DNA from: Mugilogobius chulae
Lineage: Eukaryota
Assembly: GCA_046056395.1 (NCBI GenBank)
Contig: CM100124.1
Coordinates: 623,968-687,967 of the forward strand
DNA length: 64,000 nt
Direction of reading: 5' to 3'
In this document: positions 8,497-44,335 of the stretch, piece by piece
Layout of the letters: each line of letters begins with the position of its first letter
How positions within the stretch are numbered: the first letter of the stretch is position 1
Notes under the pieces: model-generated
The model's database searches: none
Told to the model about the DNA's origin: nothing
Seen by the model: only the letters and a program-made list of their open reading frames with translations
Program-made: the position numbers and the translations under genes

Positions 8497-8960
8497 CTGA
8501 CTTCAACCTGGTTTAGACCTGGTTTAGGCCTGGTTTAGGCCTGGTTTAGTCCTGGTTTAGACCTGGTTTAGACCTGGTTTAGTCCTGTTATAGTCCTGGT
8601 TTAGTCCTGGTTTAGACCTGGTTTAGTCCTGGTTATAGTCCTGGTTTAGACCTGGTTTAGTCCTGGTTTAGACCTGATTATAGTCCTGGTTTAGACCTGG
8701 TTTAGTCCTGGTTTAGACCTGGTTTAGTCCTGGTTTAGACCTGGTTTAGTCCTGGTTTAGTCCTGGTTTAGTCCTGGTTTAGTCCTGGTTTAGACCTGGT
8801 TTAGACCTGGTTTAGTCCTGGTTTAGTCCTGGTTTAGTCCTGGTTTAGTCCTGGTTTAGTCCTGGTTTAGACCTGGTTTAGTCCTGGTTTAGACCTGGTT
8901 TAGACCTGATTATAGTCCTGGTTTAGACCTGGTTTTAGTCCTGATTTTAGTCCCTACAAC
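8497..8960. repeat. Minisatellite of the 11-mer family (CCTGGTTTAGAC / CCTGGTTTAGTC), ~40 copies
   Basis: Direct tandem 11-mers visible in the sequence. Confidence 0.9.
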
Positions 8961-10249
8961 CTTTAAAAAATCGTGAAATTAAAATCTCTCTAAACCCGAC
9001 TCGTCCTCCAGGCTCCTGCAGAGTCTCAAAAGTCTTAAAGGTCCCGTGTTAAACTGAATGAACTTCAGTCGTGTTATTCTGCTGTTCTTTTACCACATTT
9101 TTTTAAACTATTCTGCTTTTTAGGCTCTCTTATATTTTGTGGATATTTGTGGAAACTCCATCGTGTTTTTTCCACGCACTGAGAAGCTGTGGATTCAAAT
9201 GTAGGCAAATACAAGACTGGAAACACTGGAACGACATAAAAACATTTTCTGTTTGGACACTTCCTGAAAAATGCTAAACTTGTATGAATGAAGCAGAACA
9301 CAGCAGCAGCTTTGTTTCTGATGAATAATTATGTTAAAACAAGTATTAAAAAGGTGCGTAATTTAGCATCTTTGAATTTAAAATGGGAAATGTAAAGTTT
9401 TAAATGTTTTTTCTGAACATGAAGCAGCATTTTTAGACTTAAGACATGACCGACTGTAGATGGGTTTTTGGTGCGTTGGCCTGCGACATGTTTGTGTATA
9501 AAGCAGAGCTGTGGAATATATCGAATTTTAGATAATATCATGAATGTAGTTTTCAAGATATCCAAAAATGGAATATGGAGTATATCGTTCATAGTTAAAA
9601 TTGCCACAAAAAGAACCTAGTGTAAGAATAGAAAATAGAGAAAATGATGCAGTAACTTTCAATTTAGGACATAAATATAACATGTCTGCACTTCTGTGAT
9701 TCTTTTACAACATTTTACTTTGTTCACGTGACATCCCAGTATTCTCCAGACCGATAATACTTCACACAGATGTTTGTAGCTCAAATAAATCTTCAAAGTT
9801 GTAATACAAAAGTGATCAGGTCTAGTCATTTAAGGAAATCACCAGATTGAAACAGTTGAAATGATTTTTTAGATATTTAATGACAAAGTACAAAAATCAG
9901 AAATCTTCTTCACCGTCTACATCAGACCTGGGCAAACTGCGGCCCGGGGGCCAGTTGCAGTCCTTGGACTGTTTTAATTTGGCCCCCAGCACTCTTTTGA
10001 AAATAAGTGTTACCAGTGTCGGGCCGTGCATTTCCTGCCTAGGCCTTCAGTGGAGCTCCTTTTAAATATATTCACTTGTCAATAACCAGCTGATGGATAT
10101 TAAACTATTCTATTACGCAGACACGTGATAAAGAGCAAAGCACCATTACTTCTATAGTCAGAATAAACACATTTACACACACACCCAAAAATATTTACTC
10201 ACCAATAGTCTGAATTACTTGTACACCAAAAACACAAATGGTCCTGAAT

Positions 10250-10700
10250 CTGGAGCTGGTGGTAGTGGGCGCGCGGATCTTGCGCTGGACCCCGTCTTGT
10301 CCCTGAGGCACCCGGCGACGCTTCCAGTGCCTCGTAGATTTCCTCATATTGGCTCCTCTCTCGTGCAGTTATGTTTCCCTCTGCACTTGCTCGTTTAGCT
10401 GTAAATCCACTCTGGGTACGCTAGGTTTTGGAAAGCACCTTGTAAGTGTTCAGAGTTGGCCGGTCTTTCTGAACAATGTCCAGCTTTTCTTGAAAAGTCC
10501 GTCTTGAAAAAGGCTTTACCAACAGACAGCCATTTGATTGGCTGTCTGTGCTTAACAACATTAAGCACAGACAGCCAATCAAATGTCGTAGTTATCGTGA
10601 CGTTGCCGGTGGCCTGCTAGAAGGCCTTGGCGTCGTCAACGTAAAATCTGATTGGTTGAAGCAACAGTTTGATACACACTTATGTTAAGAGACGGAGCCT
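10250..10700 (+). promoter_or_regulatory. CpG-rich candidate promoter region with multiple CCAAT boxes, ~1 kb upstream of the MVP ATG exon
   Basis: CpG-dense 10250-10330. A ~60-bp near-perfect palindrome, ACAGACAGCCATTTGATTGGCTGTCTGTGCTTAA|CAACATTAAGCACAGACAGCCAATCAAATG, contains two inverted CCAAT/ATTGG boxes. A third ATTGG lies at ~10640. No TATA box. No 5'UTR exon was mapped, so promoter assignment is inferential. Confidence 0.3.
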
Positions 10701-11594
10701 TCAAAACTGATTGTGAAGACCTCGGGCAGATTTCACTGACCCTGACAACAACTGATGGCTGAAATATGATTGGTTAAAACAATATATTATGAAACACACG
10801 CCTGAAAGCTGCAAAACGATGGAAATGCTACGAAGAAGCCGATGAATAATTATTGAATTATTATTATTATGCATGCGTGCACTAAATATTAGTTATATCA
10901 GTTTGTTATTTAGATATTTTTAGGCCACAGAGAAGGCCTTGCAGGCCCTGACGGTCCGCCACTGCGTGTTACTCTTTACTTCTTTTATTGGATTGATTTT
11001 GCTATGGAGCATGTGTCTTTGCTTGTTTTCCTAATATTTATCATCAAAAATGGTCAAAATACTGTAGTGGATTAAAAAGCCTGTTTGCACATAATAATGA
11101 TAATTTGTTACACCAATGACCACGGACCGGCCCTCCATCAGTTCTCCGGGTTTGAATCTGGCCCTTAGTGGAAAAGAATTACCCACCTCTGGTCTAGATT
11201 CATGACAACGTTGTATTCTTCAACTTGAACACAGCCTATTGACGTAATAATCGTCTGAAGATCGTTATCGAGATGTGCCCAAAAAATATCAAGATATTCA
11301 TTTTTGTCAATATCACCAGCACAAGTATCAAGGTTTTATTTCATTAAAAAGAAGGATTTTGACAAGGCAAGAGATAACTGAGGGCTTAAAAAGTCTTACA
11401 TTTCTTACTTAAAGTTGTGCAGGAGCCATGTATCTCCTCTGTCTACAGTTCTAGAGAGTCATGTCTAAGAAGTCAGATCCTCTCGTTCTCCTCTTGTTCT
11501 TCTAACGTTCTCCTCTTGTTCTTCTAACGTTCTCCTCTTGTTCTTCTAACATTCTCCTCTCTTTCTTGTGTCTCCAGTTCTTTATTAAAGAGTG

Positions 11595-11758
11595 ATGTCT
11601 AAGAAGTCAGGTCCTCGAGTCGTGGACATGGATCTCCCTGTGGACGCCTCCATCATCAGGATTCCTCCTCATCACTACATCCACGTCTGGACCAGAACAC
11701 CAACATCGCCCGCGTGGAGACCGGACCCGCTGACCTACATCAGACAGGACAATGAGAG
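11595..11758 (+). CDS. mvp: Major vault protein, first coding exon (MSKKSGPRVVDMDLPVDASIIRIPPHHYIH…TYIRQDNER)
   Basis: ATG at 11595 after the acceptor CTCCAG|TTC at 11577. It matches vertebrate MVP ([36 protein letters not shown]) and ends AG|GTGAGT. A 14-codon stretch (…[14 protein letters not shown]…) is out of frame relative to the conserved [14 protein letters not shown]. Two compensating 1-nt indels (cacgtCtgg and ccggAcccg) explain this. Confidence 0.8.
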
Positions 11759-12620
11759 GTGAGTTAGACCCAGTTTAGACCTGACTTAGACCTGACTTAG
11801 ACCCACGTTCTGGACCAGAACACCAACATCGCCCGCGTGGAGACCGGCCCGCTGACTTATATCAGACAAGACAATGAGAGGTGAGAAAGACCGGACCTAG
11901 ACCTGACTTAGACCTGGTTTAGACCCACCTACATCAGACAGGACAATGAGAGGTGAGAGAGACCGGACTTAGACCTGGTTTAGACCTGACTCAGACCTAC
12001 GTCCTCGACCAGAACACCAACATCGCCCGCGTGGAGACCGGCCCGCTGACTTATATCAGACAGGACAATGAGAGGTGAGAGAGACCGGACTTAGACCTGA
12101 CTTTAGACCTGGTTTAGACCCACCTACATCAGACAGGACAATGAGAGGTGAGAAAGACCGTACTTAGACCTGACTTAGACCTGGTTTAAACCCACCCACA
12201 TCAGACTGGACAATGAGAGGTGAGAGAGACCGTACTTAGACCTGATTAGACCTGGTTTAGACCCACCTACATCAGACAGGACAATGAGAGGTGAGAGAGA
12301 CCGACTTAGACCTGGTTTAGACCTGGTTTAAACCCACATCAGACAGGACAACGAGAGGTGAGAGAGACCCAGTTTAGACCTGACTTAGACCGCTAGACCT
12401 GGTTTAGACCCACTACATGGACATGAGAGTGAGAAGACCTGACTTAGACCTGGTTGACGGTTTAGACCGGTTTAGACCCACCTACATCGCAGGACAATGA
12501 GAGGTGAGAAAGACCTGACTTAGACCTGGTTTAGACCGAGTTTAAACCCACCTACATCAGACAGGACAATGAGAGGTGAGAAGACTCGACGTAGACCTGG
12601 TTTAGACCTGGTTTGCTATG
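11759..12620. repeat. Tandem array of ~12 copies of the exon-2 3' end plus its splice donor (…ACATCAGACAGGACAATGAGAG|GTGAGA…), embedded in the 11-mer satellite
   Basis: Two long copies (11805-11885, 12000-12080) encode [26 protein letters not shown]|GTGAG in the conserved frame. Shorter copies repeat …TACATCAGACAGGACAATGAGAGGTGAGA…. Confidence 0.85.
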
Positions 12621-13299: not shown

Positions 13300-13480
13300 A
13301 CTTTCTTAGACCTGGTTTAGACCCACCTCACTCGACAGGACAAGGAGAGATGAGAAAGACCGGGTTTAGGCCTGGTTTAGACCTGGTTTAGACTTGACAT
13401 AGACACACCTTCATCAGACAGAACCACAAGAGGTGAAAAAACAGACTTAGACTTGGTTTAATCCTGGTTCAAGCCTGGTT
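13300..13480. repeat. Degenerate continuation of the donor-copy / 11-mer satellite array
   Basis: Repeats of CCTGGTTTAGAC… with GACAGGACAAGGAGAGATGAGAAAGACC. Confidence 0.6.
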
Positions 13481-13554
13481 TACACCTGGAGATGCATTTT
13501 TCTGTCTTCAGAGCCCGTTTCCTCCCGTGGCAAATTAGATTCATGTTTTGTAGT

Positions 13555-13941
13555 GCTATATTCATATTTTCATCTCTCGTGTCAGAGTCCTGTTTCCTCC
13601 CCTGTGGTCTTGTAGTGTTACATTTATATTTTCTCTCGTGTCAGAGTCCTGTTTCCTCCCCTGTGGTCTTGTTGTGTTATATTCAGTATTTCTCTCTTGT
13701 CAGAGTCCTGTTTTCTCCTCTGTGGTCTTGTAGTGTTACATTTATATTTTCTCTCGTGTCAGAGTCCTGTTTCCTCCTCTGTGGCCTTGTAGTGTTACAT
13801 TTATATTTTCTCTCGTGTCAGAGTCCTGTTTCCTCCTCTGTGGCCTTGTAGTGTTATATTTATATTTTCTCTCGTGTCAGAGGCCTGTTTCCTCCTCTGT
13901 AGTCTTGTAGTGTTACATTTATATTTTCTCTCTCGTGTCAG
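13555..13941. repeat. Tandem array (7 copies, ~60-bp unit) of the exon-3 acceptor site plus first ~16 nt of exon 3 (CTCTCGTGTCAG|AGTCCTGTTTCCTCC…)
   Basis: Each unit repeats a polypyrimidine tract, AG, then AGTCCTGTTTCCTCC. The final unit is the real acceptor. Confidence 0.85.
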
Positions 13942-14137
13942 AGTCCTGTTTCCTCCGCTGCGGATGCTGATGGTGCCTCCGCGTCACTACTGCGTCATCC
14001 TCAATCCCGTTGCCCGCGACGACAACGACCAGGTCCAGTTCGACCAATCAGGGCAGGCCAAGCTGAGACACGCCGACCAGGAGATCCGCCTCACCCAGGA
14101 CCCGTTCCCCCTGTACCCCGGGGAGGAGGTCCAGCAG
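13942..14137 (+). CDS. mvp: MVP coding exon (…[65 protein letters not shown])
   Basis: Matches human MVP [23 protein letters not shown]…[21 protein letters not shown]. Acceptor TCAG|, donor CAG|GTATGA. Phase-consistent with the flanking exons. Confidence 0.9.
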
Positions 14138-14235
14138 GTATGAACCCTCTGTAACCCTCTGTACCCCGCTGTGACCCGGGGAGGTACTGAACCCTCCTGT
14201 ACGTGTCTGAACCCTCCTGTACGTGTGTTTTTCAG

Positions 14236-14358
14236 GACGTGACGCCGCTGCAGATCGTCTTTCCCGACACGGCTCTGAGGCTCCAGGCTCTGCTCGAGTT
14301 CACCGACTCCAAAGGAACCAGAGGACGGCCGGAGACGAGTGGCTCTTCGAGGGACCAG
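14236..14358 (+). CDS. mvp: MVP coding exon (DVTPLQIVFPDTALRLQALLEFTDSKG…[frame change]…[11 protein letters not shown])
   Basis: Matches [42 protein letters not shown]. The 5' part and the 3' part ([12 protein letters not shown]) lie in different frames. That is consistent with one missing nucleotide near 14318-14326 (agaggacggccgg). Confidence 0.75.
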
Positions 14359-15306
14359 GTCTGACTGAGTCCTGCTTTAGTCTGGTTTTAGTCTTGTTTT
14401 AGGGCGTATTCAGACCTATAAAATTTGGTCCGATTTAAACGATCCAGAATTCGTTTTTTCTGACAGTTCAGACTTTTTTTTAGGTCTGAATAAAGACAAG
14501 CGAACTCTGATCCGAATCAAACGATCGGACCGAGACCACCTCTTCAGGTCGGTCTCGGGCTGATTGCAAACGGATTCTGGTGCGGATCACTTATGATCTG
14601 AATACAAACGGCCTCGATCCGAAACGAACACGAAACACATGCTCTTTTTGGACCTGACAAGCCACCGTCACAACGCACAGTCACTAAGCACAATTCTAAG
14701 CACAATTTCCTATCTACACGGTTTATTCTGTTGTCTAGATTTGTCTGAAAACATAAAGATATTTTCTCGCGTTTGTTTCCATCAAATAAAGCACTTTCAT
14801 TTTCAGTCTTAACCCTTCGTGTTTGCACAATGAAACCAAAACAGTAACACTTGGACAGTCTTCTTACCGTGATGGAGTAGAGACGAGGATCCTTACAAAC
14901 CAGATTATCAAATTGCCTCCTTTCCTTACTCGTTTAAATCTATATGTCCAGAAAAATAAGAAAGCAAAGACAGGCTACTGTTCCATTGTGAGCACTGATG
15001 CACCCAGTCCCGCTGGTACAGTGAGTAGTCCGCTGCGTTCACGTCAAATCCCAATGAAATTCATCCTCCCGACGAGCGCCAGGTCTGTGTTTAGTCCCGC
15101 ACAAACCCAGGCTCCTGCCGCCTCACCTCGGGCTCCACACGGGGCTGAAATCACCGCTACCTCTGGACTGGAGTCTGGGTTTGGACCAGTGTCTCGTCCT
15201 GTTTCACTGACAAACAGACCTAATTCTAGTCTATGACAGTAATCAGAAGGTCGTTTATGATAATGAACGAATAACGAGCTGCTACTTTACTATAAAGCCT
15301 AACTTT

Positions 15307-16489: not shown

Positions 16490-16792
16490 CTAACTTTTAT
16501 CCAAAAACACTTCTTCCGATTAGCACCGCCCCCTCGTCAGATTTGTCCAATGAGAGCGCTGGTTCTCACATACAGTATGTGTCTGTTTACGTTTTAAAGT
16601 CCACTCTACAGCAGCGCAGTGAGAGTATGCTCCGAACCAACTGAAAAAAATTAAGTCTGGATCGGATTTGGATCAAACAAGCGGACTTTTGCACTTTTCT
16701 GGTCTGAATACACCCTTAGCCCTGTTTTAGCCCTGTTTTAGTCCTGTTTTAGAGCTGGTTCAGTCGTGGTCTTGATCCGGTCTCTGTTCCAG

Positions 16793-16924: not shown

Positions 16925-17004
16925 GTAAAACACGCTGAGAACACGCTGAGAACACGCTAAGAACACGCACACACGAGGGGTATAACGTGTCTGTGTCTCT
17001 GCAG

Positions 17005-17099: not shown

Positions 17100-17215
17100 G
17101 TGAGTCTGGACCAGGACTGGACCAGGTCTGGACCAGGTCTGGACCAGGACTGGACCAGGTCTGGACCAGGACTGGACCAGGTCTGGACCAGGTCTGGACC
17201 AGGACTGAAAAAGGA
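17100..17215. repeat. 11-mer minisatellite (GGACCAGGACT / GGACCAGGTCT) starting at the splice donor
   Basis: Tandem 11-mers directly after GTGAGT. Confidence 0.8.
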
Positions 17216-18177
17216 GGACTAAAACAGGACTAAAACACAGAGCCGGATCTAACCTTTTGCTGGCCCTGAGCTAAAATCAGCTTTGGGGCTCTCCAATCTT
17301 AACCTTTATAAGTCAAGCCAAAGCAGCGTTTAACAAAGACTTTTTCATGATGATTTATAACGACACGCAAAGCGACAGACAAAAATAAGAGTAGACTAAA
17401 TCATATTTCTCAGAATAAAGAGATAATGTAAGATCCTGCCCCTGAAACATTTTCCTTAAATTTGGAGTGGGCTATTTTAGACCAACACACAACGCAGAAT
17501 TTTATTAATATACTGTATGATTGCACCTCATCAAGTTTGACTTAGTGTCAGTGTTTCCAAATGAGGCCCCAGCCCTGTCCCTCTCCCTGTGAGCTCCTCC
17601 TCTGTTCTCTCTTCATGTGCTCACGCTGGAACAGCTGATAAACTGCATCATCGCGCTGGACTTTTTGGACAGAAATACTGAAATTTGAAACTTTTTGGGG
17701 ACAAACAGCCTCATGTTTTATGTGGCTTTTAAAAGAATTCAACATAAATCAGCCGACGTTTAAGTACATCAGCTGTTTGTGTTTGTAGTTCAGTCAATAC
17801 TTGTCCTATTGACACTAATAAAGATTGTCTGAGAGCTTATGAGATATACGTAGAACAGGTATTTTTGTCCAAACTGTTCCCAGAGTCTTTGAGTTGGCGG
17901 TCTGTGCTGAGAATGATCAGACACCTGTTTCAGGAGAAGCGGCTGTGATCCTGTTGTGCCTCAAGAACAGAAGAGGGGAGGTCTATCACGTTTAAGCTTG
18001 TATGATTGGTCAAACAGGTATTATGTACAGCCCAAACCAGAGAGTGAAGCCAACAGACCTGATGACTGGACTGACATAAACTCAAAAAACTATCAGCGCT
18101 CAGAAGGCAGGGCCAAACACAGATGAGGGGCCCTAAGCAACTTGTGTAGTCTGCGTATAGGAAGGTCCGGCTCTGCT

Positions 18178-19112
18178 AAAGCAGGACTAAAGCAGGACTA
18201 AACAGGACTAAAACAGGACTTAAACAGGACTAAAACAGGACTTAAACAGGACTAAACCACGTCTAAAACAGGACTAAACCTGGACTGAAGCAGGACTAAA
18301 ACAGGACTAAAACAGGACTTAAACAGGACTAAAACAGGACTTAAACAGGACTAAACCACGTCTAAAACAGGACTAAACCTGGACTAAAAACAGGACTTAA
18401 ACAGGACTAAAACAGGACTTAAACAGGACTAAACCACGTCTAAAACAGGACTAAATCAGGACTAAAACAGGACTTAAACAGGACTAAACCACGTCTAAAA
18501 CAGGATTAAACCTGGACTAAACAGGACTTAAACAGGACTAAACCACGTCTAAAACAGGACTAAATCAGGACTAAAACAGGACTTAAACAGGACTAAAACA
18601 GGACTTAAACAGGACTAAACCATGTCTAAAACAGGACTAAACCTGGACTAAAACAGGACTTAAACAGGACTAAACCACGTCTAAAACAGGACTAAATCAG
18701 GACTAAAACAGGACTTAAACAGGACTAAAACAGGACTTAAACAGGACTAACCACGTCTAAAACAGGACTAAACCTGGACTAAAACAGGACTTAAACAGGA
18801 CTAAAACAGGACTTAAACAGGACTAAACCTGGACTAAAACAGGACTTAAACAGGACTAAAACAGGACTTAAACAGGACTTAAACAGGACTAAACAGGACT
18901 TAAACAGGACTAAACCTGGACTAAAACAGGACTAAAACAGGACTTAAACAGGACTTAAACAGGACTAAACCACGTCTAAAACAGGACTAAACCTGGACTA
19001 AAACAGGACTAAAACAGGACTAAAACAGGATGAAAATGAGACTAAAACAGGACTATATCAGAACTAAAACAAGACTAAAACAGGACTTAAACAGAACTAA
19101 ACCAGTTCTCTC
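18178..19112. repeat. Minisatellite of the 11-mer family, reverse-complement orientation (AAACAGGACTAAAACAGGACTT…), ~0.9 kb, ending ~10 nt before the exon acceptor
   Basis: Tandem units visible. It is the reverse complement of the GTCCTGTTTTAGTCCTG units seen at 16700-16760. Confidence 0.9.
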
Positions 19113-19784: not shown

Positions 19785-22700
19785 TATTCTTCCTTCAGAG
19801 ACAGATGTTTCCTCCTAAAACTTTGCTCCTCTGATGTTCTCGTCTCTTCTTCAGGGAGAGATGTTTCGTCCCTCTCTTTGCTCCTCTGATGTTCTCGTCT
19901 CTTCTTCAGGGAGAGATGTTTCGTCCTCTCTTTGCTCCTCTGATGTTCTCGTCTCTTCTTCAGGGAGAGATGTTTGGTCCTCTCTTTGCTCCTCTGATGT
20001 TCTCGTCTCTTCTTCAGGGAGAGATGTTTCGTCCTCTCTTTGCTCCTCTGATGTTCTCGTCTCTTCTTCAGGGAGAGATGTTTCGTCCTCTCTTTGCTCC
20101 TCTGATGTTCTCGTCTCTTCTTCAGGGAGAGATGTTTCGTCCTCTCTTGCTCCTCTGATGTTCTCGTCTCTTCTTTCAGGGAGAGATGTTTCGTCCCTCT
20201 CTTTACTTCCTTGAAGTGGCTCTCTGATTCTGTTCTCGTCTCTTCTTCAGGGAGAGATGTTTCGTCCTCTCTTGCTCCTCTGATGTTCTCGTCTCTTCTT
20301 CAGGGAGAGATGTTTCGTCCTCTCTTTGCTCCTCTGATGTTCTCGTCTCTTCTTCAGGGAGAGATGTTTCGTCCTCTCTTTGCTCCTCTGATGTTCTCGT
20401 CTCTTCTTCAGGGAGAGATGTTTCGTCCTCTCTTTGCTCCTCTGATGTTCTCGTCTCTTCTTCAGGGAGAGATGTTTCGTCCTCTCTTGTCCTCTGATGT
20501 TTCGTTCTTCTTCAGGGAAGATGTTTGTCCTCTCTTTGCTCCTCTGATGTTCTCGTCTCTTCTTCAGGGAGAGATGTTTGGTCCTCTCTTTGCTCCTCTG
20601 ATGTTCTCGTCTCTTCTTCAGGGAGAGATGTTTGGTCCTCTCTTTGCTCCTCTGATGTTTCGTCTCTTCTTCAGGGAGAGATGTTTGGTCCTCTCTTTGC
20701 TCCTCTGATGTTCTCGTCTCTTCTTCAGAGAGAGATGTTTGGTCCTCTCTTTGCTCCTCTGATGTTCTCGTCTCTTCTTCAGAGAGAGATGTTTCGTCCT
20801 CTCTTTGCTCCTCTGATGTTCTCGTCTCTTCTTCAGAGAGAGATTTCGTCCTCTCTTTGCTCCTCTGATGTTCTCGTCTCTTCTTCAGGGAGAGATGTTT
20901 CGTCCTCTCTTTGCTCCTCTGATGTTCTCGTCTCTTCTTCAGGGAGAGATGTTTCGTCCTCTCTTTGCTCCTCTGATGTTCTCGTCTCTTCTTCAGGGAG
21001 AGATGTTTGGTCCTCTCTTTGCTCCTCTGATGTTCTCGTCTCTTCTTCAGGGAGAGATGTTTGGTCCTCTCTTTGCTCCTCTGATGTTCTCGTCTCTTCT
21101 TCAGGGAGAGATGTTTCGTCCTCTCTTTGCTCCTCTGATGTTCTCGTCTCTTCTTCAGGGAGAGATGTTTCGTCCTCTCTTTGCTCCTCTGATGTTCTCG
21201 TCTCTTCTTCAGAGAGAGATGTTTCGTCCTCTCTTTGCTCCTCTGATGTTCTCGTCTCTTTTTCAGGGAGAGATGTTTCGTCCTCTCTTTGCTCCTCTGA
21301 TGTTCTCGTCTCTTCTTCAGGGAGAGATGTTTGGTCCTCTCTTTGCTCCTCTGATGTTCTCGTCTCTTCTTCAGGGAGAGATGTTTCGTCCTCTCTTTGC
21401 TCCTCTGATGTTCTCGTCTCTTCTTCAGGGAGAGATGTTTCGTCCTCTCTTTGCTCCTCCTGATGTTCTCGTCTCTTCTTCAGGGAGAGATGTTTCGTCC
21501 TCTCTTTGCTCCTCTGATGTTCTCGTCTCTTCTTCAGGAGAGATGTTTCGTCCTCTCTTTGCTCCTCTGATGTTCTCGTCTCTTCCTCAGAGAGAGATGT
21601 TTCGTCCTCTCTTTGCTCCTCTGATGTTTCTCGTCTCTTCTTCAGGGAGAGATGTTTCGTCCTCTCTTTGCTCCTCTGATGTTCTCGTCTTCTTCAGGAA
21701 GAGATGTTTCGTCCTCTCTTTGCTCCTCTGATGTTCTCGTCTCTTCTTCAGGGAGAGATGTTTCGTCCTCTCTTTGCTCCTCTGATGTTCTCGTCTCTTC
21801 TTCAGGGAGAGATGTTTCGTCCTCTCTTTGCTCCTCTGATGTTCTCGTCTCTTCTTCAGGGAGAGATGTTTCGTCCTCTCTTTGCTCCTCTGATGTTCTC
21901 GTCTCTTCTTCAGGGAGAGATGTTTCGTCCTCTTTGCTCCTCTGATGTTCTCGTCTCTTCTTCAGGAGAGATGTTTCGTCCTCTCTTTGCTCCTCTGATG
22001 TTCTCGTCTCTTCTTCAGGAGAGATGTTTCGTCCTCTCTTTGCTCCTCTGATGTTCTCGTCTCTTCTTCAGGGAGAGATGTTTCGTCCTCTCTTTGCTCC
22101 TCTGATGTTCTCGTCTCTTCTTCAGGGAGAGATGTTTCGTCCTCTCTTTGCTCCTCTGATGTTCTCGTCTCTTCTTCAGGGAGAGATGTTTCGTCCTCTC
22201 TTTGCTCCTCTGATGTTCTCGTCTCTTCTTCAGGAGAGATGTTTCGTCCTCTCTTTGCTCCTCTGATGTTCTCGTCTCTTCTTCAGGAGAGATGTTTCGT
22301 CCTCTCTTTGCTCCTCTGATGTTCTCGTCTCTTCTTCAGGGAGATGTTTCCTCTCTTTGCTCCTCGATGTTCTCGTCTCTTCTTCAGAGAGAGATTTTCG
22401 TCCTCTCTTTGCTCCTCTGATGTTCTCGTCTCTTCTTCAGGGAGAGATGTTTCGTCCTCTCTTTGCTCCTCTGATGTTGTCGTCTCTTCTTCAGGGAGAG
22501 ATGTTTGGTCCTCTCTTTGCTCCTCTGATGTTCTCGTCTCTTCTTCAGGGAGAGATGTTTCGTCCTCTCTTTGCTCCTCTGATGTTCTCGTCTCTTCTTC
22601 AGGGAGAGATGTTTCGTCCTCTCTTTGCTCCTCTGATGTTCTCGTCTCTTCTTCAGGGAGAGATGTTTCGTCCTCTCTTTGCTCCTCTGATGTTCTCGTC

Positions 22701-22965
22701 TCTTCTTCAGGGAGAGATGTTTCGTCCTCTCTTTGCTCCTCTGATGTTCTCGTCTCTTCTTCAGGGAGAGATGTTTCGTCCTCTCTTTGCTCCTCTGATG
22801 TTCTCGTCTCTTCTTCAGGGAGAGATGTTTGGTCCTCTCTTTGCTCCTCTGATGTTCTCGTCTCTTCTTCAGGGAGAGATGTTTCGTCCTCTCTTTGCTC
22901 CTCTGATGTTCTCGTCTCTTCTTCAGAGAGAGATGTTTCGTCCTCTCTTTGCTCCTCTGATGTAG
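19785..22965. repeat. 3.2-kb tandem array (~60 copies, 52-bp unit) duplicating the last ~52 nt of the intron, i.e. the 3' splice acceptor of the next exon: …TCTCGTCTCTTCTTCAG|GGAGAGATGTTTCGTCC…
   Basis: The unit closely matches the genuine acceptor region at 23041-23100 (GGGAGATGTTTCGTCCCCTCGTTGCTCCTTTAATGTCCTTGTCTTCCTTCTTCAG|GGGGAAAAG). All the long ORF-track ORFs at 19834-22985 are read through this repeat. Confidence 0.9.
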
Positions 22966-23095: not shown

Positions 23096-23221
23096 GGGGA
23101 AAAGTCGTTCTTCCTTCAGCCCGGAGAACGTCTGGAGAACGGGATCCAGGACGTGTTTGTTCTGTCTGAGGAGGAAGGTTTGGTGCTGAGAGCTGTGGAG
23201 GCGTTCGACGACGTGGACCCG
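23096..23221 (+). CDS. mvp: MVP coding exon ([42 protein letters not shown])
   Basis: Matches [34 protein letters not shown]…. Acceptor CTTCAG|, donor CCG|GTAAGA. Confidence 0.9.
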
Positions 23222-23720
23222 GTAAGAACCAGGACTGAACCTGGACTAAACCTGGATCTGAACCAGGACTAAACCAGGTAGGAACCAGGGACTGAACCTG
23301 GACTATACCTGGACTTGAACTGAGACTTGAACCAGGAATGAACCAGGTAAGAACCAAGACTGAACCTGGACTTGAACCAGAGAGTGAACCAGGACTGAAC
23401 CAAGACTAAACCCGGTAAGAACCAGGACTGGACCTGGACTAAACCTGGACTTGAACTGAGACTAAACAAGGTAAGGACCAGGACTGAAACCAAGACTAAA
23501 TCAAGATCTGAACCAAGACCTGGGCCAAGACGTGAACAGAGACTGAACCTGGACTGAACCAGGACTGAACCAGGTCTGAACCAAGACTTGAACCAGGACT
23601 AAACCTAGACTTGAACCAGAGAGTGAACCAGGACTAAACTAAGACCTGAACCAAGACCAAACCAGGTAAGAACCAGGACTGAACCTGGACTATACCTGGT
23701 AAGAACGAGGACTAGAGTGG
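23222..23720. repeat. 11-mer family minisatellite (GAACCAGGACTGAACCTGGACTAAACC…) beginning at the splice donor
   Basis: Tandem units directly after GTAAGA. Confidence 0.85.
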
Positions 23721-30136: not shown

Positions 30137-30360
30137 CAGTTTGAAGACGAAGAGGACGAAGAGGAGGAGCAGGAGCAGGAAGGGGGCGGGGCCAAGCGCA
30201 GACGCCGCGCCGGGATCCAGCGTCGCCCCGGAGACCGCTGGATGCTGCGCGGGCCCATCGAGTACGTGCCCCCCGCTGCGTGGAGGTGGTACTGCGACGC
30301 GACGCCATTCCTCTGGACGAGAACGAAGGGATCTACGTCCGGGACATGAAGACGGGAAAG
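30137..30360 (+). CDS. mvp: MVP coding exon ([48 protein letters not shown][frameshift][27 protein letters not shown])
   Basis: Matches …[45 protein letters not shown]. The conserved reading jumps -1 at ~30279 (gctgcg^gtggaggtg). The ORF track confirms that the upstream frame runs on as …[13 protein letters not shown]… to a TGA at 30347. A 223-nt alternative start is possible at 30140. Donor AAG|GTCAGT. Confidence 0.8.
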
Positions 30361-31690: not shown

Positions 31691-31925
31691 GTTCGCGCGG
31701 TGATCGGACACACCTACATGCTGACCCAGGACGAGGAGCTTTGGAACAAGATTCTCCCGGCCAACGTGGAGGCTCTGCTGGCGTCTCCTCTGGACCCTCT
31801 GGCCGATCGCTCCGACAGGAACCGGGACGCGCAGCAGCTTCCGCGAGACAAAACCCGCGTGGTGTCGTACCGATGCCTCACAACGCCGCTGTGGCAGGTG
31901 TACGACTACAGGAGAAGAAAGCACG
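31691..31925 (+). CDS. mvp: MVP coding exon ([61 protein letters not shown]…; the 3' end is frame-disrupted)
   Basis: Matches [30 protein letters not shown]…DPLADR…[27 protein letters not shown]. The last ~50 nt (cgaTGCCTCACAACGCCGCTGTGGCAGGTGTACGACTACAGGAGAAGAAAGCACG|GTGGGT) differ from the conserved frame by three 1-nt indels, net -1. The downstream tandem copies read …[17 protein letters not shown]|GT in the correct frame. Coordinates within 31681-31741 are ±1 nt, because my reading of that displayed line and the ORF track disagree by one position. Confidence 0.75.
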
Positions 31926-32430
31926 GTGGGTTTAACACGTTAACACGCTTTAGGTACGTCACAACGCGGCTGTGCAGGTGTACGACTACAGAGAGACGGT
32001 TTAACACGCTTTAGTACGTCACAACGCGGCTGTGCAGGTGTACGACTACAGGGAGAAGAAAGCACGGTGGGTTTAACACGTTTAACACGCTTTAGTACGT
32101 CACAACGCCGCTGTGCAGGTGTACGACTACAGGGAGAAGAAAGCACGGTGGGTTTAACACGTTTAACACGCTTTAGTACGTCACAACGCGGCTGTGCAGG
32201 TGTACGACTACAGAGAGAAGAAAGCACGGTGGGTTTAACACGTTTAACACGCTTTATTACGTCACAACGCCGCTGTGCAGGTGTACGACTACAGAGAGAA
32301 GAAAGCTCGGTGGGTTTAACACGTTTAATACGCTTTATTACGTCACAACGCCGCTGTGCAGGTGTACGACTACAGGGAGAAGAAAGCACGGTGGGTTTAA
32401 CACGCTTAACACGCTTTAGTACGTCACAAC
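31926..32430. repeat. Tandem array (~6 copies, ~80-bp unit) duplicating the exon 3' end plus splice donor plus the first ~35 nt of the intron (GTCACAACGCCGCTGTGCAGGTGTACGACTACAGGGAGAAGAAAGCACG|GTGGGTTTAACACGTTTAACACGCTTTAGTAC)
   Basis: Direct tandem copies; each retains a GTGGGT donor and the conserved MVP codons. Confidence 0.9.
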
Positions 32431-33359: not shown

Positions 33360-34331
33360 GGTGGTCATACATGTTATTACACGTGTTATTACATGTGTTA
33401 TAACTGTTGTTTCAGGTTAGAGATGGTCGTCGTGTTATTACATGTGTTATAAAGTTGTTACAGGTTCAGAGCTGGTCGTACGTGTTATTACATGTGTTAC
33501 AACTGTTGTTTCAGGTTCAGAGATGGTCGTACGTGTTATTACATGTGTTACAACTGTTGTTTCAGGTTCAGAGATGGTCGTACGTGTTATTACATGTGTT
33601 ACAACTGTTGTTTCAGGTTCAGAGATGGTCGTACGTGTTATTACATGTGTTACAACTGTTGTTACAGGTTCAGAGATGGTCGTACGTGTTATTACATGTG
33701 TTTATAACTGTTATTACAGGGTTGTTTTCGGCCCGGAGCTGGTCGTACGTGTTGTTAACATGTGTTATAACTGTTGTTACAGAGTGGTTTTCGGCCCGGA
33801 GCTGGTCGTACGTGTTATTACATGTGTTATAAACTGTTGTTTCAGGTTCAGAGCTGGTCGTACGTGTTATTACATGTGTTATAACTGTTATTACAGGGTT
33901 GTTTTCGGCCCGGAGCTGGTCGTACGTGTTATTACATATGTTATAACTGTTATTACAGAGTGGTTTTTGGCTCGTAGCTGGTCGTACGTGTTATTACATG
34001 TGTTATAACTGTTATTACAGAGTGGTTTTGGGCTCGTAGCTGGTCGTACGTGTTGTTACATGTGTTTATAACTGTTATTACAGAGTGGTTTTCGGCCCGG
34101 AGCTGGTCGTACGTGTTATTACAAGTGTTATACCTGTTGTTACAGAGTGGTTTTTGGCTCGTAGCTGGTCGTACGTGTTATTACATATGTTATAACTGTT
34201 ATTACAGAGTGGTTTTTGGCTCGTAGCTGGTCGTACGTGTTATTACATGTGTTATTACTCTTGTTTCAGAGTGGTTTTCGGCCCGGAGCTGGTCGTATGT
34301 GTTATTACATGTGTTATTTCTGTTATTACAG
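33360..34331. repeat. Tandem array (~16 copies, ~60-bp unit) duplicating the acceptor site plus first ~25 nt of the next MVP exon (…TGTTATTACAG|AGTGGTTTTCGGCCCGGAGCTGGTC…)
   Basis: Later units contain the exact exon start AGTGGTTTTCGGCCCGGAGCTGGTCGTAC. Earlier units are diverged (…TTTCAGGTTCAGAGATGGTCGTAC…). The last unit is the real acceptor. Confidence 0.9.
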
Positions 34332-34529
34332 AGTGGTTTTCGGCCCGGAGCTGGTCATGCTCGGTCCGGACGAACAGTTCACGGTTCTCTCTCTCTCCGG
34401 GGACAAACCGAAGCGAGCCAACGTGATCAAAGCCGTGTGTCTGCTGCTCGGACCGGACTTCTGCACCGACGTCATCACCATAGAAACGGCCGACCACGCC
34501 CGCCTCCAGCTGCAGCTTGCCTACAACTG
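34332..34529 (+). CDS. mvp: MVP coding exon ([66 protein letters not shown])
   Basis: Near-identical to human [66 protein letters not shown]. Acceptor TTACAG|; the donor is the non-canonical-looking TG|GTACTC. Confidence 0.9.
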
Positions 34530-35830: not shown

Positions 35831-36042
35831 AACTCAAACCGGATCATCTGCTCGGCCGTGTTCGGTTTCGACGAGAAGGTCCACATCCGGCCGTCGCTGG
35901 AGTTCGCTCAGAACCGTCTGGTCATCAGCAGCGTCGACATCCAGTCTGTGGAGCCTGTGGACCAGAGAACCAGAGACGCCCTGCAGAAGAGCGTCCAGCT
36001 GGCCATCGAGATCACCACCAACTCTCAGGAGGCGGCTGCACG
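35831..36042 (+). CDS. mvp: MVP coding exon ([70 protein letters not shown][R])
   Basis: Matches NSARIIRTAVFGFE…[44 protein letters not shown]. Acceptor CGTCAG|, donor CG|GTGAGG. Confidence 0.9.
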
Positions 36043-36480
36043 GTGAGGAGAGAGGGAGGAGAGGAGAGGAGAGAGGAGGGAGGGAGGTAGGGAGGGAGGA
36101 GAACCAGAGACGCCCTGCAGAAGAGCGTCCAGCTGGCCATCGAGATCACCACCAACTCTCAGGAGGCGGCCGCACGGTGAGGAGAGAGGGAGGGAGGGAG
36201 GGAGGGAGGAGGAGAGGAGAGAGGGAGGAGAGAGGGAGGAGAGAGGAGAGGGTGGAGGAGAGAGGGAGGAGGGAGAGAGAGGGAGGATAGAGTAGAGAGA
36301 GAGGAGAGGAGGGAGGGAGGAGAGAGGGAGAGAGAACCAGAGACGCCCTGCAGAAGAGCGTCCAGCTGGCCATCGAGATCACTACGAACTCTCAGGAGGC
36401 GGCCGCACGGTGAGGAGAGAGGGAGGAGAGAGGGAGGGAGGAGAACCAGAGACGCCCTGCAGAAGAGAGTTCACCTGGCC
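36043..36480. repeat. Intron start carrying 2.5 extra tandem copies of the exon 3' end plus donor (GAACCAGAGACGCCCTGCAGAAGAGCGTCCAGCTGGCCATCGAGATCACCACCAACTCTCAGGAGGCGGCCGCACG|GTGAGG), separated by purine-rich (GAGGGAGG)n
   Basis: Copies at 36101-36183 and 36336-36418, plus a partial copy at 36446-36480 that runs directly into the next exon's acceptor. Confidence 0.85.
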
Positions 36481-36641: not shown

Positions 36642-36759
36642 GTGAGAACCAGGACTGAACCAGGACTAAAACAGGACTAAAACAGGACTGAACCAGGACT
36701 AAAACAGGACTGCACCTGGACTAAAACAGGACTGCACCAGGACTAAAACAGGACTTACC

Positions 36760-37599: not shown

Positions 37600-38523
37600 G
37601 ATATATATTTTTGTCAGTGCGGCTTGCGGTTGTCGAGCTTTATTAATATATTTTGTGTTTTGTCAGTGCTGCTGTGGAGCTTTAATAATAATATATTTTG
37701 TGTTTTGTCAGTGCTGCTGTGGAGTTTTAATAATAATATATTGTGTGTTTTATCAGTGCTGCTGTGGAGTTTTAATAATAATATATTGTGTGTTTTATCA
37801 GTGCTGCTGTGGAGTTTTAATAATAATATATTTTGTGTTTTATCAGTGCTGCTGTGGAGCTTTAATAATAATATATTTTGTGTTTTATCAGTGCGGCTGT
37901 GGAGTTTTTATAATAATAATATATTTTGTGTTTTATCAGTGCTGCGGTGGAGCTTTAATAATAATATATTTTGTGTTTTATCAGTGCTGCTGTGGAGCTT
38001 TAATAATAATATATTTTGTGTTTTATCAGTGCTGCTGTGGAGTTTTAATAATAATATATTTTGTGTTTTGTCAGTGCTGCTGTGGAGCTGTTATAATAAT
38101 ATATTTTGTGTTTTATCAGTGCTGCTGTGGAGCTTTAATAATAATATATTTTGTGTTTTGTCAGTGCTGCTGTGGAGCTTTAATAATAATATATTGTGTG
38201 TTTTATCAGTGCTGCGGTGGAGCTTTAATAATAATATATTTGTATTTTATCAGTGCTGCTGTGGAGCTTTAATAATAATATATTTTGTGTTTTATCAGTG
38301 CTGCTGTGGAGCTTTAATAATAATATATTTTTGTGTTTTGTCAGTGCTGCTGTGGAGCTTTAATAATAATATATTTTGTATTTTATCAGTGCTGCTGTGG
38401 AGCTTTAATAATAATATATTTTGTGTTTTGTCAGTGCTGCTGTGGAGCTTTTATAATAATATATTTGTATTTTATCAGTGCTGCGGTGGAGCTTTAATAA
38501 TAATATATTTTGTATTTTATCAG
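37600..38523. repeat. Tandem array (~20 copies, 46-bp unit) duplicating the acceptor site plus first ~15 nt of the next MVP exon (…GTGTTTTATCAG|TGCTGCTGTGGAGCTTTAATAATAATATATTTT…)
   Basis: The unit is the real acceptor TATTTTATCAG|TGCTGCGGTGGAG (38513-38536). The ORF-track ORFs at 37598-38559 read through this repeat. Confidence 0.9.
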
Positions 38524-38650
38524 TGCTGCGGTGGAGAGCACCGGAGCGGCCAAAGCTGAAGCTCAGTCCAGAGCAGAAGCAGCTCGGATCCAGGGAGAAG
38601 CCGCTGTGGAGGAGGCCAAGCTGAAGGCCGAGGCCCAGAGGATCGAGGCT
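38524..38650 (+). CDS. mvp: MVP coding exon ([42 protein letters not shown])
   Basis: Matches [42 protein letters not shown]. Donor GCT|GTGAGT. Confidence 0.9.
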
Positions 38651-38731
38651 GTGAGTTTAAAACCTACATCTGCACATTTAAGCCCTTCCTCTCTCTGATT
38701 GGCTGCGCTCTGCTGGGTCATGTGACTTTAG

Positions 38732-38920: not shown

Positions 38921-39039
38921 GTGAGCGCGCACAAACAACACGCACAAAAACACGCACACAAACAAGCAGACGAAACAAGAGAATCACAGGACACAACACG
39001 CACAAAACACGAATACACAGACACCGCACGAGGACAAAC

Positions 39040-39095
39040 ACGCTGAGGGAGATGGCCAGAGCGGGGCCGGAGCTGCAGGTGAGCGCGCACAAACG
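39040..39095. repeat. Duplicate of the preceding exon's 3' end plus donor (CGCTGAGGGAGATGGCCAGAGCGGGGCCGGAGCTGCAG|GTGAGCGCGCACAAACGACACGCACAC)
   Basis: Exact copy of 38884-38945. Confidence 0.85.
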
Positions 39096-41427: not shown

Positions 41428-41556
41428 GTGAAGATGCTCCAGGCTCTGGGTCTCAAGTCGACTCTGATCACAGACGGATCCTCCCCCATCAACCTGTTCA
41501 CCACCGCCAACGGCCTGCTGGGGGCGCTGCCGGGGCCGGGACAGGGAAACGAATAG
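41428..41556 (+). CDS. mvp: MVP last coding exon ([42 protein letters not shown])
   Basis: Matches [38 protein letters not shown]…. Acceptor GTCCAG|; TAG stop at 41554-41556. Confidence 0.9.
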
Positions 41557-42395
41557 AGAGGGACCGGGACAGAGACTGGGACAGGGACAGGACTATGACT
41601 AGAGCAAGACCTGGACAGTGAAACGAATAGAGAGGGACCGGGACAGGACAAGAGCGAGACCGAGACAAGACTAAAGCAAGACCTGCAGAGACCAGGACAG
41701 TGAAACGAATAGAGAGGGACCGGGACAGGACTAGAGCAGGACCAGGACAGGACTAAAGCAGGACCTCAGAGGACCTGCCAGGGCCGAGACAGAGACAGGA
41801 TTAGGACTAGAGCAGGACCAGGGACAGGGACTAAAGCAAGACCTGCAAAAAACGGGACCGGGACAGGACAAGAGCAGGTCCAGGGACAGGGACTGGGACA
41901 GGACTAAAGCGGGACAGGGACAGGACTAGACGAAGACTGGGACAAGACCTGCCAGGGCCGAGACAAGGACAGGACTAAAGCAGGACTAGAGCAGGACCTC
42001 ACAGGACTGGGACAGGACTAGAGCAGGACTGAGACAGGACCTGCTGGGACAGGGACAGGACTAAAACAGGACCAGGACAGAACTAAAGCAAGACCTGCAA
42101 GAACCGGGACAGGGACAGGACTAAAGCAGAGGCAGGACTGGGGCAAGACTAGAGCAGGACCAGGACAGGACCTGCTGGGACCGGGACAAGGACTGGGACC
42201 GGGACAGGACAAGAGCGAGACCGAGACAAGACTAAAGCAGGACCTGGAGAGACCGGGACAAGACAAGGACTAGGACTAAAGCAGGACCTCAGAGAACCTG
42301 CAAGGACCAAGACCGGGACTGGGACATAGACTGGGACAAGAACCGGGACAGGGACATAGACTGGGACAGGGACAGGACTAGAGCAGGACTTGGTA
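41557..42395. repeat. Irregular ~11-mer minisatellite (GGGACAGGACTAAAGCAGGACC…) filling the presumptive 3'UTR, with three extra copies of the stop-codon region (CAGTGAAACGAATAGAGAGGGACCGGGACAGG)
   Basis: Tandem units. GAAACGAATAGAGAGGGACCGGGACAG recurs at 41620, 41695 and 41557. Confidence 0.85.
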
Positions 42396-43029
42396 AAAGT
42401 TCAGTTTCTTATGCAAAAAGTCGTCTGTATGAGGGTTTTTGTCATTTTTTTAACGCCGTTTCTTCACCCAAAACGTCCCTGAAGTCGAGTTTAATGTTTG
42501 AACTGTCCCGAAACGCTCCGTTCCACCTGGTGATGTCATGAAGTGGTCGTTTAGTCGCTCACTTTTCTGTTTAGCCTCAGTTGGACTTTCTTTAATCCCA
42601 GTAGAATCGAGCGTTTGTGCCGTTTTCGAAGCAATGTTTTGTTGCATATTCTTTTTAAAAAACTCAAATGTTTTTTCTTTAACTGTGTAGAGAGGCAGTT
42701 TAAATGAGGTTAATGCAGTAGCTGTGGTTTAAAAACACTTAATGACGTCACAAAGTGGAGCGGAGTGTTTTTAGTCTGAGGAAAACCCAGCTTCACGAGT
42801 GTTTTTTAATCCAGAAACGACGTTATAAAAGGTTAAAACTGTGGGTAAAACGGGTCCTTTCATTGTGGGTCCTTTTATTGTGGGTCCTTCCGTTTTCTGA
42901 AGCCTTAAACTAAAACTGTGTCTGACTTTTTTTAAATAAGATTATGAACGTCTGCAAAAGGTAAAATCATGTTCTGTTTGTTTTTGGTGGAAGATTTTGG
43001 TTTAAAAAGCACTTAGGTTAAAGTTCAAG

Positions 43030-43560
43030 GGTCACGGTGGATCCTTCACTCCTTCCTCGTGTCCTCATCTCCTTCCTCATGTCCTCTTCTCCTTCTTCGT
43101 ATCCTCGTCTCCTTTCTCATGTCCTCGTCTCCTTCCTTATGTCCTTCACTCCTTCCTCGTGGCCTTTATTCCTTCCTCGTTTCCTTTACTCCTTCCTCGT
43201 TTCCTTCACTCCTTCCTCGTGTCCTTTATTACTTCCTCGTGTCCTTTACTCCTTCCTCGTGTCCTTTACTCCTTCCTCGTGTCCTTGTCTCCTTCCTCGT
43301 GTCCTTTACTCCTTCCTTGTGTCCTTTATTCCTTCCTCATGTCCTCATCTCCTTGTTTCCTTCCTCGTGTCCTCGTCTCCTTCCTCATGTTCTCATCTCC
43401 TTGTTTCCTTCCTCGTGTCCTCGTCTCCTTCCTCATGTTCTCTTCTCCTTCCTCGTCTCCTTCCTCGCGTCCTTGTTTCCTTCCTCACGTCCTTGTTTCC
43501 TTCCTCGTGTCCTTGTGTCCATCTTTCCTTCCTCTTGTTTTTTTTCTCTTTTGGCCGAAG
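43030..43560. repeat. Minisatellite, ~21-bp unit (TCCTTTACTCCTTCCTCGTGT) x ~25
   Basis: Direct tandem copies; the ORF-track ORFs at 43037-43576 read through it. Confidence 0.9.
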
Positions 43561-43681
43561 CTTTGAAATGAAATGAAGTTTAAAGAGTTTACATTTGTTG
43601 CACTTTTTCCCTCTAAAGCCTTAAATAAAGAAATAAAATTATCCTGACTTCTGAGGTAATGTTTTTATTAATAATTACACC

Positions 43682-44335
43682 TGTGGTTCAATCCTGGCTC
43701 AGGCCTGGTTTAGACCTGGTTTAGACCTGGTTTAGACCTGGTTTAGACCTGGTTCAGACCTGGTTTAGACCTGGTTTAGACCTGGTTTAGACCTGGTTTA
43801 GTCCTGGTTTAGACCTGGTTCAGCCCTGGTTTAGACCTGGTTTAGACCTGGTTTCGACCTGGTTCAGACCTGGTTCAGACCTGGTTCAGACCTGGTTTAG
43901 ACCTGGTTTAGTCCTGGTTTAACCTGTTTAGACCTGGTTCAGACCTGGTTCAGACCTGGTTTAGACATGGTTTAGTCCTGGTTTAGACCTGGTTTAGACC
44001 TGGTTTAGACCTGGTTCAGACCTGGTTCAGACCTGGTTTAGACATGGTTTAGTCCTGGTTTAGACATGGTTTAGACCTGGTTTAGACCTGGTTTAGACCT
44101 GGTTTAGACCTGGTTCAGACCTGGTTTAGACATTAGACCTGGTTCAGACCTGGTTCAGACCTGGTTTAGACCTGGTTTAGACCTGTTTAGACCTGGTTTA
44201 GACCTGGTTTAGTCCTGGTCAGACCTGGTTTAGACCTGGTTTAGACCTGGTTTAGACCTGGTTTAGTCCTGGTTTAGTCCTGGTTCAGACCTGGTTTAGA
44301 CCTGGTTTAGACCTGGTTTAGACCTGGTTCAGCCC
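43682..44335. repeat. 11-mer minisatellite (CCTGGTTTAGAC / CCTGGTTCAGAC) x ~60
   Basis: Direct tandem copies. Confidence 0.9.

Follow-up and report, generated by a model that had tools for sequence, protein, structure and literature searches.

A patchily dispersed and probably old 11-bp minisatellite family of gobies with arrays that abut the splice signals of MVP

The MVP gene of the goby Mugilogobius chulae lies in a 64,000-nt stretch of contig CM100124.1 (assembly GCA_046056395.1, positions 623,968 to 687,967, forward strand; hereafter the window), and five of its introns carry arrays of an 11-bp tandem repeat with the core AGWCCTGKTTT, or AAAMCAGGWCT on the other strand. These arrays are orthologous between goby species, occur outside the gene as well as within it and are absent from the non-gobies sampled. 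We consider it likely that they belong to an old goby minisatellite family, patchily dispersed and not specific to MVP, whose orthologous arrays are pinned between the splice signals of the introns that hold them. From these observations we infer that the arrays are neutral, that they changed by slippage or unequal exchange and that selection on the splice signals gave them their sharp boundaries.

The unit is far more frequent than chance predicts. In the window, CTGGTTTAGAC occurs exactly 56 times, exclusively on the + strand, against an expectation of 0.06, and 304 11-mers lie within two mismatches of CCTGGTTTAGA when both strands are counted, as compared with 14–26 in shuffled sequence. 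An 11-mer with at most two mismatches on either strand is counted here as a family match, and arrays in the window were called with Tandem Repeats Finder (TRF). TRF called 11-bp arrays at essentially all of the places where an earlier note on this DNA had listed an 11-mer satellite; the period is 11, not 10, in all of them, and the units stand head to tail in 3 to 85 copies, the unit size of a minisatellite, or variable number of tandem repeats (VNTR), locus. Independent loci include five introns and both flanks in the window and an unlinked locus in Boleophthalmus, and the longest family-related array in the window reaches 6 kb. The variants on the − strand (GTCTGGACCAG, CAGGACTAAAA and GAACCAGGACT) differ by one or two mismatches from the reverse complement of + strand units. 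Both orientations are thus present, as the earlier note had said, but in blocks rather than intermixed: + at 8.5–16.8 kb, − at 17.1–42.4 kb and + at 43.7–56.4 kb. A scan for three consecutive units found no match in a viral contig collection and a single one in a metagenome collection, a three-unit coincidence in a bacterial contig. A full-text literature search for the unit returned chance-matching primers only, and we found no description of the family in the literature on goby tandem repeats, minisatellites and introns. In kind it is an ordinary minisatellite, and nothing suggests a new type of system.

MVP was located by tblastn, first with human and then with Boleophthalmus MVP (P0121), and comprises 16 coding exons and 15 introns, all GT..AG with splice sites checked by eye. 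The satellite had been placed in nearly every MVP intron; family matches occur in 5 of the 15 only, namely introns 1 (25 matches, +), 3 (4, +), 5 (60, −), 7 (12, −) and 13 (7, −), and the other ten introns have none. Nearly all of the large introns do hold some tandem array, mostly of non-family units. Two of the listed arrays are not within the coding region at all: 8507–8953 precedes the ATG by 2.6 kb, and 43693–44329 follows the stop codon at a distance of 2.1 kb. Two others are not plain 11-mer arrays: the first (11759–12620) is a composite of 71/122/194-bp units, each made of the tail of exon 1, a GTGAG donor and three to four family units (GAGAGGTGAG, ten times), and the second (41557–42395), which begins at the stop codon and repeats the stop-codon region three times, is a 22/82-bp composite of which half resembles the family.

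The family is not concentrated in the gene, either. Match density in the window is 3.67/kb inside MVP and 5.70/kb outside, and family-related DNA makes up about 9% of the gene span as against about 24% of the remaining window. Downstream lies a 6-kb satellite (47700–53753), missing from the earlier note, in whose unit GTCTTGGTTTAATCTTGACTTCG two diverged family units are joined as a dimer, comparable to the alternation of GGTT and GACT units in intron 1. The locus-specific expansion that had been proposed finds no support, the same units occurring on a Boleophthalmus contig other than that of MVP, at 10.2 matches/kb. Equally, the family is not uniformly abundant in all introns, the finding that the earlier note had named as fatal to locus specificity, since its distribution is patchy: it is scarce or absent at three other unlinked goby loci.

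That the arrays are old follows from the same locus in relatives. We compared the orthologous MVP loci of Boleophthalmus (L005, GCA_026225935.1), Eucyclogobius (L006, GCA_026437365.1), Knipowitschia (GCA_964034765.1), icefish and Poecilia. The best protein matches of the window's MVP are Boleophthalmus pectinirostris (91%), Periophthalmus (90%), Eucyclogobius (89%) and Knipowitschia (89%), and exon nucleotide identity to the window falls from 88.9% in Boleophthalmus through 87.7% in Eucyclogobius and 82.8% in Knipowitschia to 81.3% in icefish. The MVP loci of icefish and Poecilia (9–13 kb) bear no trace of the family, and loci of icefish, Poecilia and Syngnathus stand at a background level of 0.2–0.5 matches/kb. 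Boleophthalmus, by contrast, has family arrays in the same introns and on the same strands as the window, with matches (window and L005, respectively) of 25 and 182 in intron 1 (+), 4 and 21 in intron 3 (+), 60 and 81 in intron 5 (−) and 144 and 113 downstream (+). Its intron 1 contains a 5.4-kb family array (+), its introns 3 (262 bp, +) and 5 (1062 bp, −) are filled from about +5/+11 to about −20/−25, that is, over the whole intron, and a 23/34-mer satellite (+) lies far downstream. Its intron 7 donor array is likewise on the − strand when judged by eye, its units (CCAGGACTGAC) falling beyond the two-mismatch count, and the 50 + matches in that intron come from a separate array on the acceptor side. 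The exons that flank the arrays align between window and Boleophthalmus, as does one non-coding flank of the downstream array.

At three donors the correspondence can be followed unit by unit. After the exon 7 donor the window reads gtaagaaccaggactgaacc..., Boleophthalmus gtaagaaccaggactagacc..., Eucyclogobius gtaaggaccaggacaagacc (20 units) and Knipowitschia gtgaggaccaggactggaccaggactg followed by unique sequence, that is, two units, while icefish has unrelated sequence. The exon 3 donor is followed by + units in all four gobies, including the 95-bp intron of Knipowitschia, and the exon 5 donor by an 11–12-bp array in all four, with units that have drifted apart. Because the donor regions align at single-unit resolution and the flanking exons are orthologous, the family arrays at these MVP positions are orthologous between gobies and old. 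The arrays have also expanded in place, as the earlier note held: copy number at the exon 7 donor is 2 in Knipowitschia, about 11 in Boleophthalmus, about 20 in Eucyclogobius and about 41 in the window, and across orthologous positions it spans 2 units to hundreds between gobies. In introns 3 and 5 of the window, family units stand at both ends with unrelated DNA between them, a layout which suggests whole-intron arrays that would later have been split by insertions in the window species; the runs at 14367–14400 and 16716–16765, on this reading, appear to be the donor-side and acceptor-side remnants of the array that fills intron 3 in Boleophthalmus.

Arrays of other units are orthologous between gobies as well, in intron 4 (AACACGC...), in intron 6 (CTCCTCTGA...GTTCTC) and in a downstream 29-bp array with AGGTCATGTGACG; the whole repeat landscape of the MVP locus, beyond the 11-mer family alone, therefore appears to be inherited. 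The gene spans about 30 kb in the window and 32 kb in Boleophthalmus, where 80% of it is tandem repeat, as compared with 9.5–13 kb in Knipowitschia and icefish.

The earlier note was right that the arrays abut splice donors. They start at intron position +5 or +6 in introns 1, 5, 7 and 13 and at +9 in intron 3, the array of intron 5 even overlapping donor positions +5/+6, and on the acceptor side they end 19 nt (intron 5) and 28 nt (intron 3) before the acceptor. Such placement could mean that the donor-proximal arrays are functional, acting as intronic splicing elements or, through a DNA structure phased at 11 bp, on chromatin at exon-intron borders. An array lies within 10 nt of the donor in all five family-bearing introns, its first units are conserved in four genera, and the unit itself reads as donor-like (...CAG/GT...) on one strand and acceptor-like (...YTTTAG/) on the other. 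We nevertheless regard a function as highly unlikely. Orientation relative to the transcript is + in introns 1 and 3 and − in introns 5, 7 and 13, and such mixing argues against a role at the RNA level; a single site has anything from 2 to more than 80 units, depending on the species; the same units occur in intergenic DNA and, in an unlinked Boleophthalmus locus (L008), as a 1-kb array in the middle of a TRIM intron, 560 nt from its donor; and ten MVP introns do without the family. Moreover, unrelated arrays directly follow the donors of introns 4 (AACACGCTGAG) and 12 (GGAG...), and other non-family arrays end at acceptors. The orthologous introns of Knipowitschia are tiny (63–95 bp for introns 1–3), which leaves little room between splice signals. 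Since unrelated arrays behave alike, the introns are small and both orientation and copy number are free, the position of the arrays at intron ends is better ascribed to constraint than to function. On the simplest reading, the arrays occupy all of the unconstrained intron space and are halted by selection at the donor and at the stretch from branch point to acceptor, so that an intron seems to open with the satellite, and their sole effect on MVP would be to enlarge the gene to about 30 kb. The donor-end placement and the conserved first units leave a small place for function or targeting.

A second kind of tandem repetition affects the exon-intron junctions of MVP, where units of 45–194 bp that comprise an exon edge and its splice site are repeated, up to 58 times in one array (Table 1). 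In Boleophthalmus an 83-bp unit with the exon 10 donor recurs 47 times, exon 1 is duplicated together with its satellite, and the junction arrays at the exon 9 donor and the exon 10 acceptor occupy orthologous places in the window and Boleophthalmus. The earlier note attributed this phenomenon to unequal exchange between flanking satellite blocks, an account which finds some support at exon 1 but fails as a general cause. At exon 1, exon and satellite share GACC / CCACGT microhomology, and it is there that the repeats have their boundaries; the HVLDQ codons (11670–11690), which read CACGTCCTGGACCAG in the in-frame copies, resemble the intron 5 unit GTCTGGACCAG, a likeness that may have favoured exchange between exon and satellite; given these matches, slippage or unequal exchange by way of the satellite is plausible there. 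Family units are present in the exon 1 donor array, the exon 7 donor array and, loosely, the stop-codon array, that is, in 2–3 of about nine junction arrays, and none were found in those of exons 2, 7 (acceptor), 9, 10, 12 and 14. Junction arrays and family both look like products of one region prone to tandem duplication.

These data bear on the proposal in its wider form, by which the family arose within the MVP locus from one seed, spread there and drove the junction arrays by unequal exchange between its blocks. Expansion in place is clear, the exon 1 junction array does join family units to an exon tail, the exon 7 donor array reiterates GGTAAG six more times, and tandem repeats make up 32–80% of MVP in three gobies, far above the 0.5–9% of three of the four other goby loci. 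A single MVP seed is nonetheless improbable, given that match density in the window is higher beyond the gene than within it, that the family continues up to 15 kb past the stop codon and reaches the same density on another Boleophthalmus contig, and that six junction arrays contain no family unit.

Four unlinked goby loci, obtained by way of a TRIM protein family (L008–L011), place MVP in its genomic context. Family-rich L008 is also rich in tandem repeats (37%), as opposed to 0.5–9% in L009–L011. Domains rich in repeats and with sharp limits thus seem to be a feature of goby genomes, tandem repeats covering 80% of the MVP gene span in Boleophthalmus and 37% of L008 but 0.5–9% of the other three loci. 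The family is dispersed but patchy and lives in such repeat-rich domains, of which the MVP region is one.

L008 also contains the only hint of a mobile carrier, a 2.9-kb element (L008:7029–9905) whose 218-nt outer arms are 98% complementary and are followed inward by mirrored family arrays, + at 7246–7744 and − at 9324–9614, each with a 58-nt inner segment (83% identity) inside it. Long inverted termini built of short tandem repeats characterise foldback transposons such as the FB elements of Drosophila, and the element shares this architecture, although only at this one place. It differs from FB elements in that one copy alone was seen, with no visible target-site duplication at its ends, without a second copy of its termini in the roughly 370 kb examined and without anything comparable at MVP. 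The 11-mer could accordingly be the internal repeat of the inverted termini of a foldback-like element, whose insertions would deposit arrays that persist and grow while the unique parts decay. Seeding of this kind would be compatible with an old, dispersed family, and a conserved mobile source would explain why the family consensus is identical in three genera and at unlinked loci. It is rather unlikely all the same: neither the termini of the element nor its GTAATC..GATTAC motifs occur in the window or in ten other loci; arrays share no flanks beyond orthologous exons, the orthologous downstream flank and the single inverted pair of L008; the element might have arisen by local inverted duplication of DNA that by chance included an array; and insertion at +5 of five introns would demand an odd target preference. 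Bolder, and improbable, is the idea that the 11-mer is the core of a foldback transposon lineage still mobile in oxudercid gobies, which seeds arrays across the genome and whose donor-side copies either have survived tens of millions of years because their first units became part of donor definition or reflect donor-targeted integration. If true, the idea would tie a mobile satellite to the growth of introns and the architecture of splice sites.

An old and dispersed minisatellite family accommodates these observations best. In such a history, each array would date back, as at least one to a few units, to an ancestor shared by the source species, Boleophthalmus, Eucyclogobius and probably Knipowitschia, with its intron end and its orientation unchanged since. 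The introns would originally have been short, with selection guarding the donor to about +5 and the last 20–30 nt (branch point, polypyrimidine tract and acceptor), and each array would since have grown, shrunk and homogenised independently, presumably by replication slippage and unequal exchange, some being later split by insertions. Several points weigh against this history. The core GACCAGGAC is kept at the exon 7 donor in four genera despite 11–17% coding divergence, so that the order at that donor exceeds what a purely neutral picture predicts, and all five family-bearing introns have the array at the donor end. The history does not account for how the unit reached five introns and unlinked loci, and a search of the MVP locus turned up no carrier element. 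Only one of the four unlinked goby loci is family-rich, so that "genome-wide" here means patchy and a regional bias is possible; for example, a contig end is about 0.3 Mb away from MVP in Boleophthalmus, which may matter, though the gene is mid-contig in Eucyclogobius. The genome of the source species was sampled through the 64-kb window alone, and 1-nt indels in its assembly make array copy numbers and fine structure approximate.

Table 1. Coordinates of MVP, family arrays, junction arrays and other tandem arrays in the window and in the comparison loci (empty cell, not given).
Feature	Position	Strand	Description
MVP gene, ATG to stop	11595–41556	+	Host of the intronic arrays; tblastn with human and Boleophthalmus MVP
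Upstream array	8507–8953	+	40 units, CCTGGTTTAGA/CCTGGTTTAGT alternating, 90% matches (TRF)
Intron 1 start, composite junction array	11759–12614	+	71/122/194-bp units; family units from intron position +6
Intron 1, two degenerate extra copies of exon 1 composite	13311–13474	+	Short family runs; TRF run 13357–13393
Intron 3, donor side	14367–14400	+	Three family-like units from position +9; not in the earlier note's list
Intron 3, acceptor side	16716–16765	+	About 4 units CCTGTTTTAG; TRF run 16716–16752; ends before exon 4 acceptor
Intron 5, donor side	17104–17228	−	About 10 units GTCTGGACCAG/GACTGGACCAG from position +5; TRF 17104–17207, 9.5 copies
Intron 5, acceptor side	18176–19105	−	85 units CAGGACTAAAA and variants (TRF); ends before exon 6 acceptor
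Intron 7	23226–23713	−	Degenerate array of about 41 units GAACCAGGACT from position +5; TRF 23226–23691, 70% matches
Intron 13	36646–36755	−	About 10 units GAACCAGGACT/AAAACAGGACT, 22-bp higher order, from +5/+6; TRF 36650–36755, 9.6 copies
Stop-codon composite array	41557–42395	−	22/82-bp units, GGGACAGGGACAGGACTAAAGC; half family-like, loose relation
Downstream array	43693–44329	+	59 units CCTGGTTTAGA/CCTGGTTCAGA; orthologous arrays downstream of MVP in Boleophthalmus and Eucyclogobius
6-kb satellite	47700–53753	+	23/46-bp unit GTCTTGGTTTAATCTTGACTTCG; orthologue Boleophthalmus L005:49715–51781
Far-downstream array	55814–55968	+	14 units TCCTGTTTTAG/TCCTGGTTTAG (TRF)
Far-downstream array	56318–56420	+	9.5 units TCCTGTTTTAG (TRF)
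Junction arrays, window	11681–12614, 13548–13960, 19788–22963, 31878–32430, 33381–34356, 35966–36445, 37644–38536, 39037–39081, 41539–41771		Exon edge plus splice site
Junction arrays, Boleophthalmus L005	30120–34170, 29040–30004, 8839–9296		Exon edge plus splice site
Orthologous non-family arrays	Window 16929–16968, 19788–22963, 54654–55412; L005 17494–17711, 20329–20899; L006 33334–35803		Intron 4, intron 6 and downstream 29-bp array
L008, Boleophthalmus	Contig JAPFQS010000008.1, not the contig of MVP	both	10.2 matches/kb, nine arrays
L009, Boleophthalmus	MVP contig, 34 Mb away		One 3-unit cluster
L010, Periophthalmus			No family arrays
L011, Eucyclogobius			No family arrays

In its short unit (11 bp), its head-to-tail arrays (0.03–6 kb) at many loci, the dominant variants peculiar to each array and the widely different copy number at orthologous sites, the goby family resembles other dispersed vertebrate minisatellite families. 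It departs from the usual minisatellite in the unusual tidiness with which it runs from about +5 of an intron to about −20 from the acceptor, in its retention at the same intron ends in several genera and in the share of the gene span that tandem repeats take up in three gobies. Among teleosts rich in tandem repeats, gadids such as the haddock have had genes and introns invaded at large scale, mainly by short microsatellites; gobies are likewise a fish lineage with large-scale tandem repeats in genes and introns, but with an 11-bp family and exon-intron junction arrays in patchy repeat-rich domains.

A closer parallel for the arrays that repeat a donor is intron 7 of human F7, where the first unit of a 37-bp VNTR spans the exon 7 donor and only the most upstream site is used, the pseudo-donors staying silent by virtue of that choice (PMC1557585). 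In the same way, the exon 1 array of the window (11681–12614, with its ten copies of GAGAGGTGAG) repeats the authentic donor, as does in part the exon 7 donor array (23221–23713), where GGTA[AG]G occurs seven times, six of them as extra donor-like copies, and both thereby give strings of downstream pseudo-donors. By analogy, choice of the most upstream donor would explain why such arrays are tolerated. Unlike the F7 repeat, most goby arrays start after the donor (those of introns 3, 5 and 13 do not reiterate it), the unit is 11 and not 37 bp long, and it recurs in several introns and outside the gene. The MVP locus could offer a natural setting in which to study how pseudo-donors and pseudo-acceptors, though present in strings, are passed over by the spliceosome. 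It also illustrates how a conserved housekeeping gene can become three times as long through tandem repeats rather than transposons, with splice signals untouched. Arrays can, moreover, survive in different genera at corresponding ends of an intron, with copy numbers anywhere between 2 and hundreds.

Recovering a full-length MVP from the window required repair of several 1-nt frameshifts, in exons 1 (11652–11759), 3 (14316–14322), 8 (30271–30280) and 9 (31873–31930). The two in exon 1 offset each other and scramble 14 conserved residues, and the downstream exon 1 pseudo-copies are in frame. These frameshifts look like indel errors of a long-read assembly, with a recent pseudogene as the putative alternative, and a PacBio-only assembly of the round goby is said to contain indels (PMC6988351). 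Errors of this sort raise the question of whether the arrays themselves could be an artefact of noisy long-read assembly, which we reject as having next to no probability, orthologous arrays being present in the three independent assemblies of Boleophthalmus, Eucyclogobius and Knipowitschia. MVP is split or truncated in several annotations, and the lesson for annotation in gobies is that arrays, repeated splice junctions and assembly indels together break gene models.

Introner-type gain of new introns was also considered and rejected, since the exon boundaries of MVP fall at the same residues in the window, icefish and Poecilia, and match breaks in the alignment to the human protein, so that the intron positions are ancestral. 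A tblastx search with the icefish upstream gene (Caskin) gave no match in the window, the TRIM neighbour of MVP in Knipowitschia is absent from it, Rfam and tRNA scans of the window found no RNA genes, and ten long open reading frames (ORFs) of the flanks and large introns had no Pfam match. By motif recognition, and with no Pfam match, two further features on the − strand may be assigned tentatively: a degenerate LINE-like retrotransposon remnant at 57114–59851, with what look like the beginning of an endonuclease and a typical C-terminal tail, and, at 56548–57027, an ORF with putative immunoglobulin-domain hallmarks (C...W...DxGxYxC). Finally, a CTCF-like motif (CACCAGAGGGCGC) follows the downstream array on its right side within a few tens of bases, at 44384–44396 in the window and 26901–26913 in L006, and is kept between the window and Eucyclogobius amid otherwise unalignable non-coding DNA.

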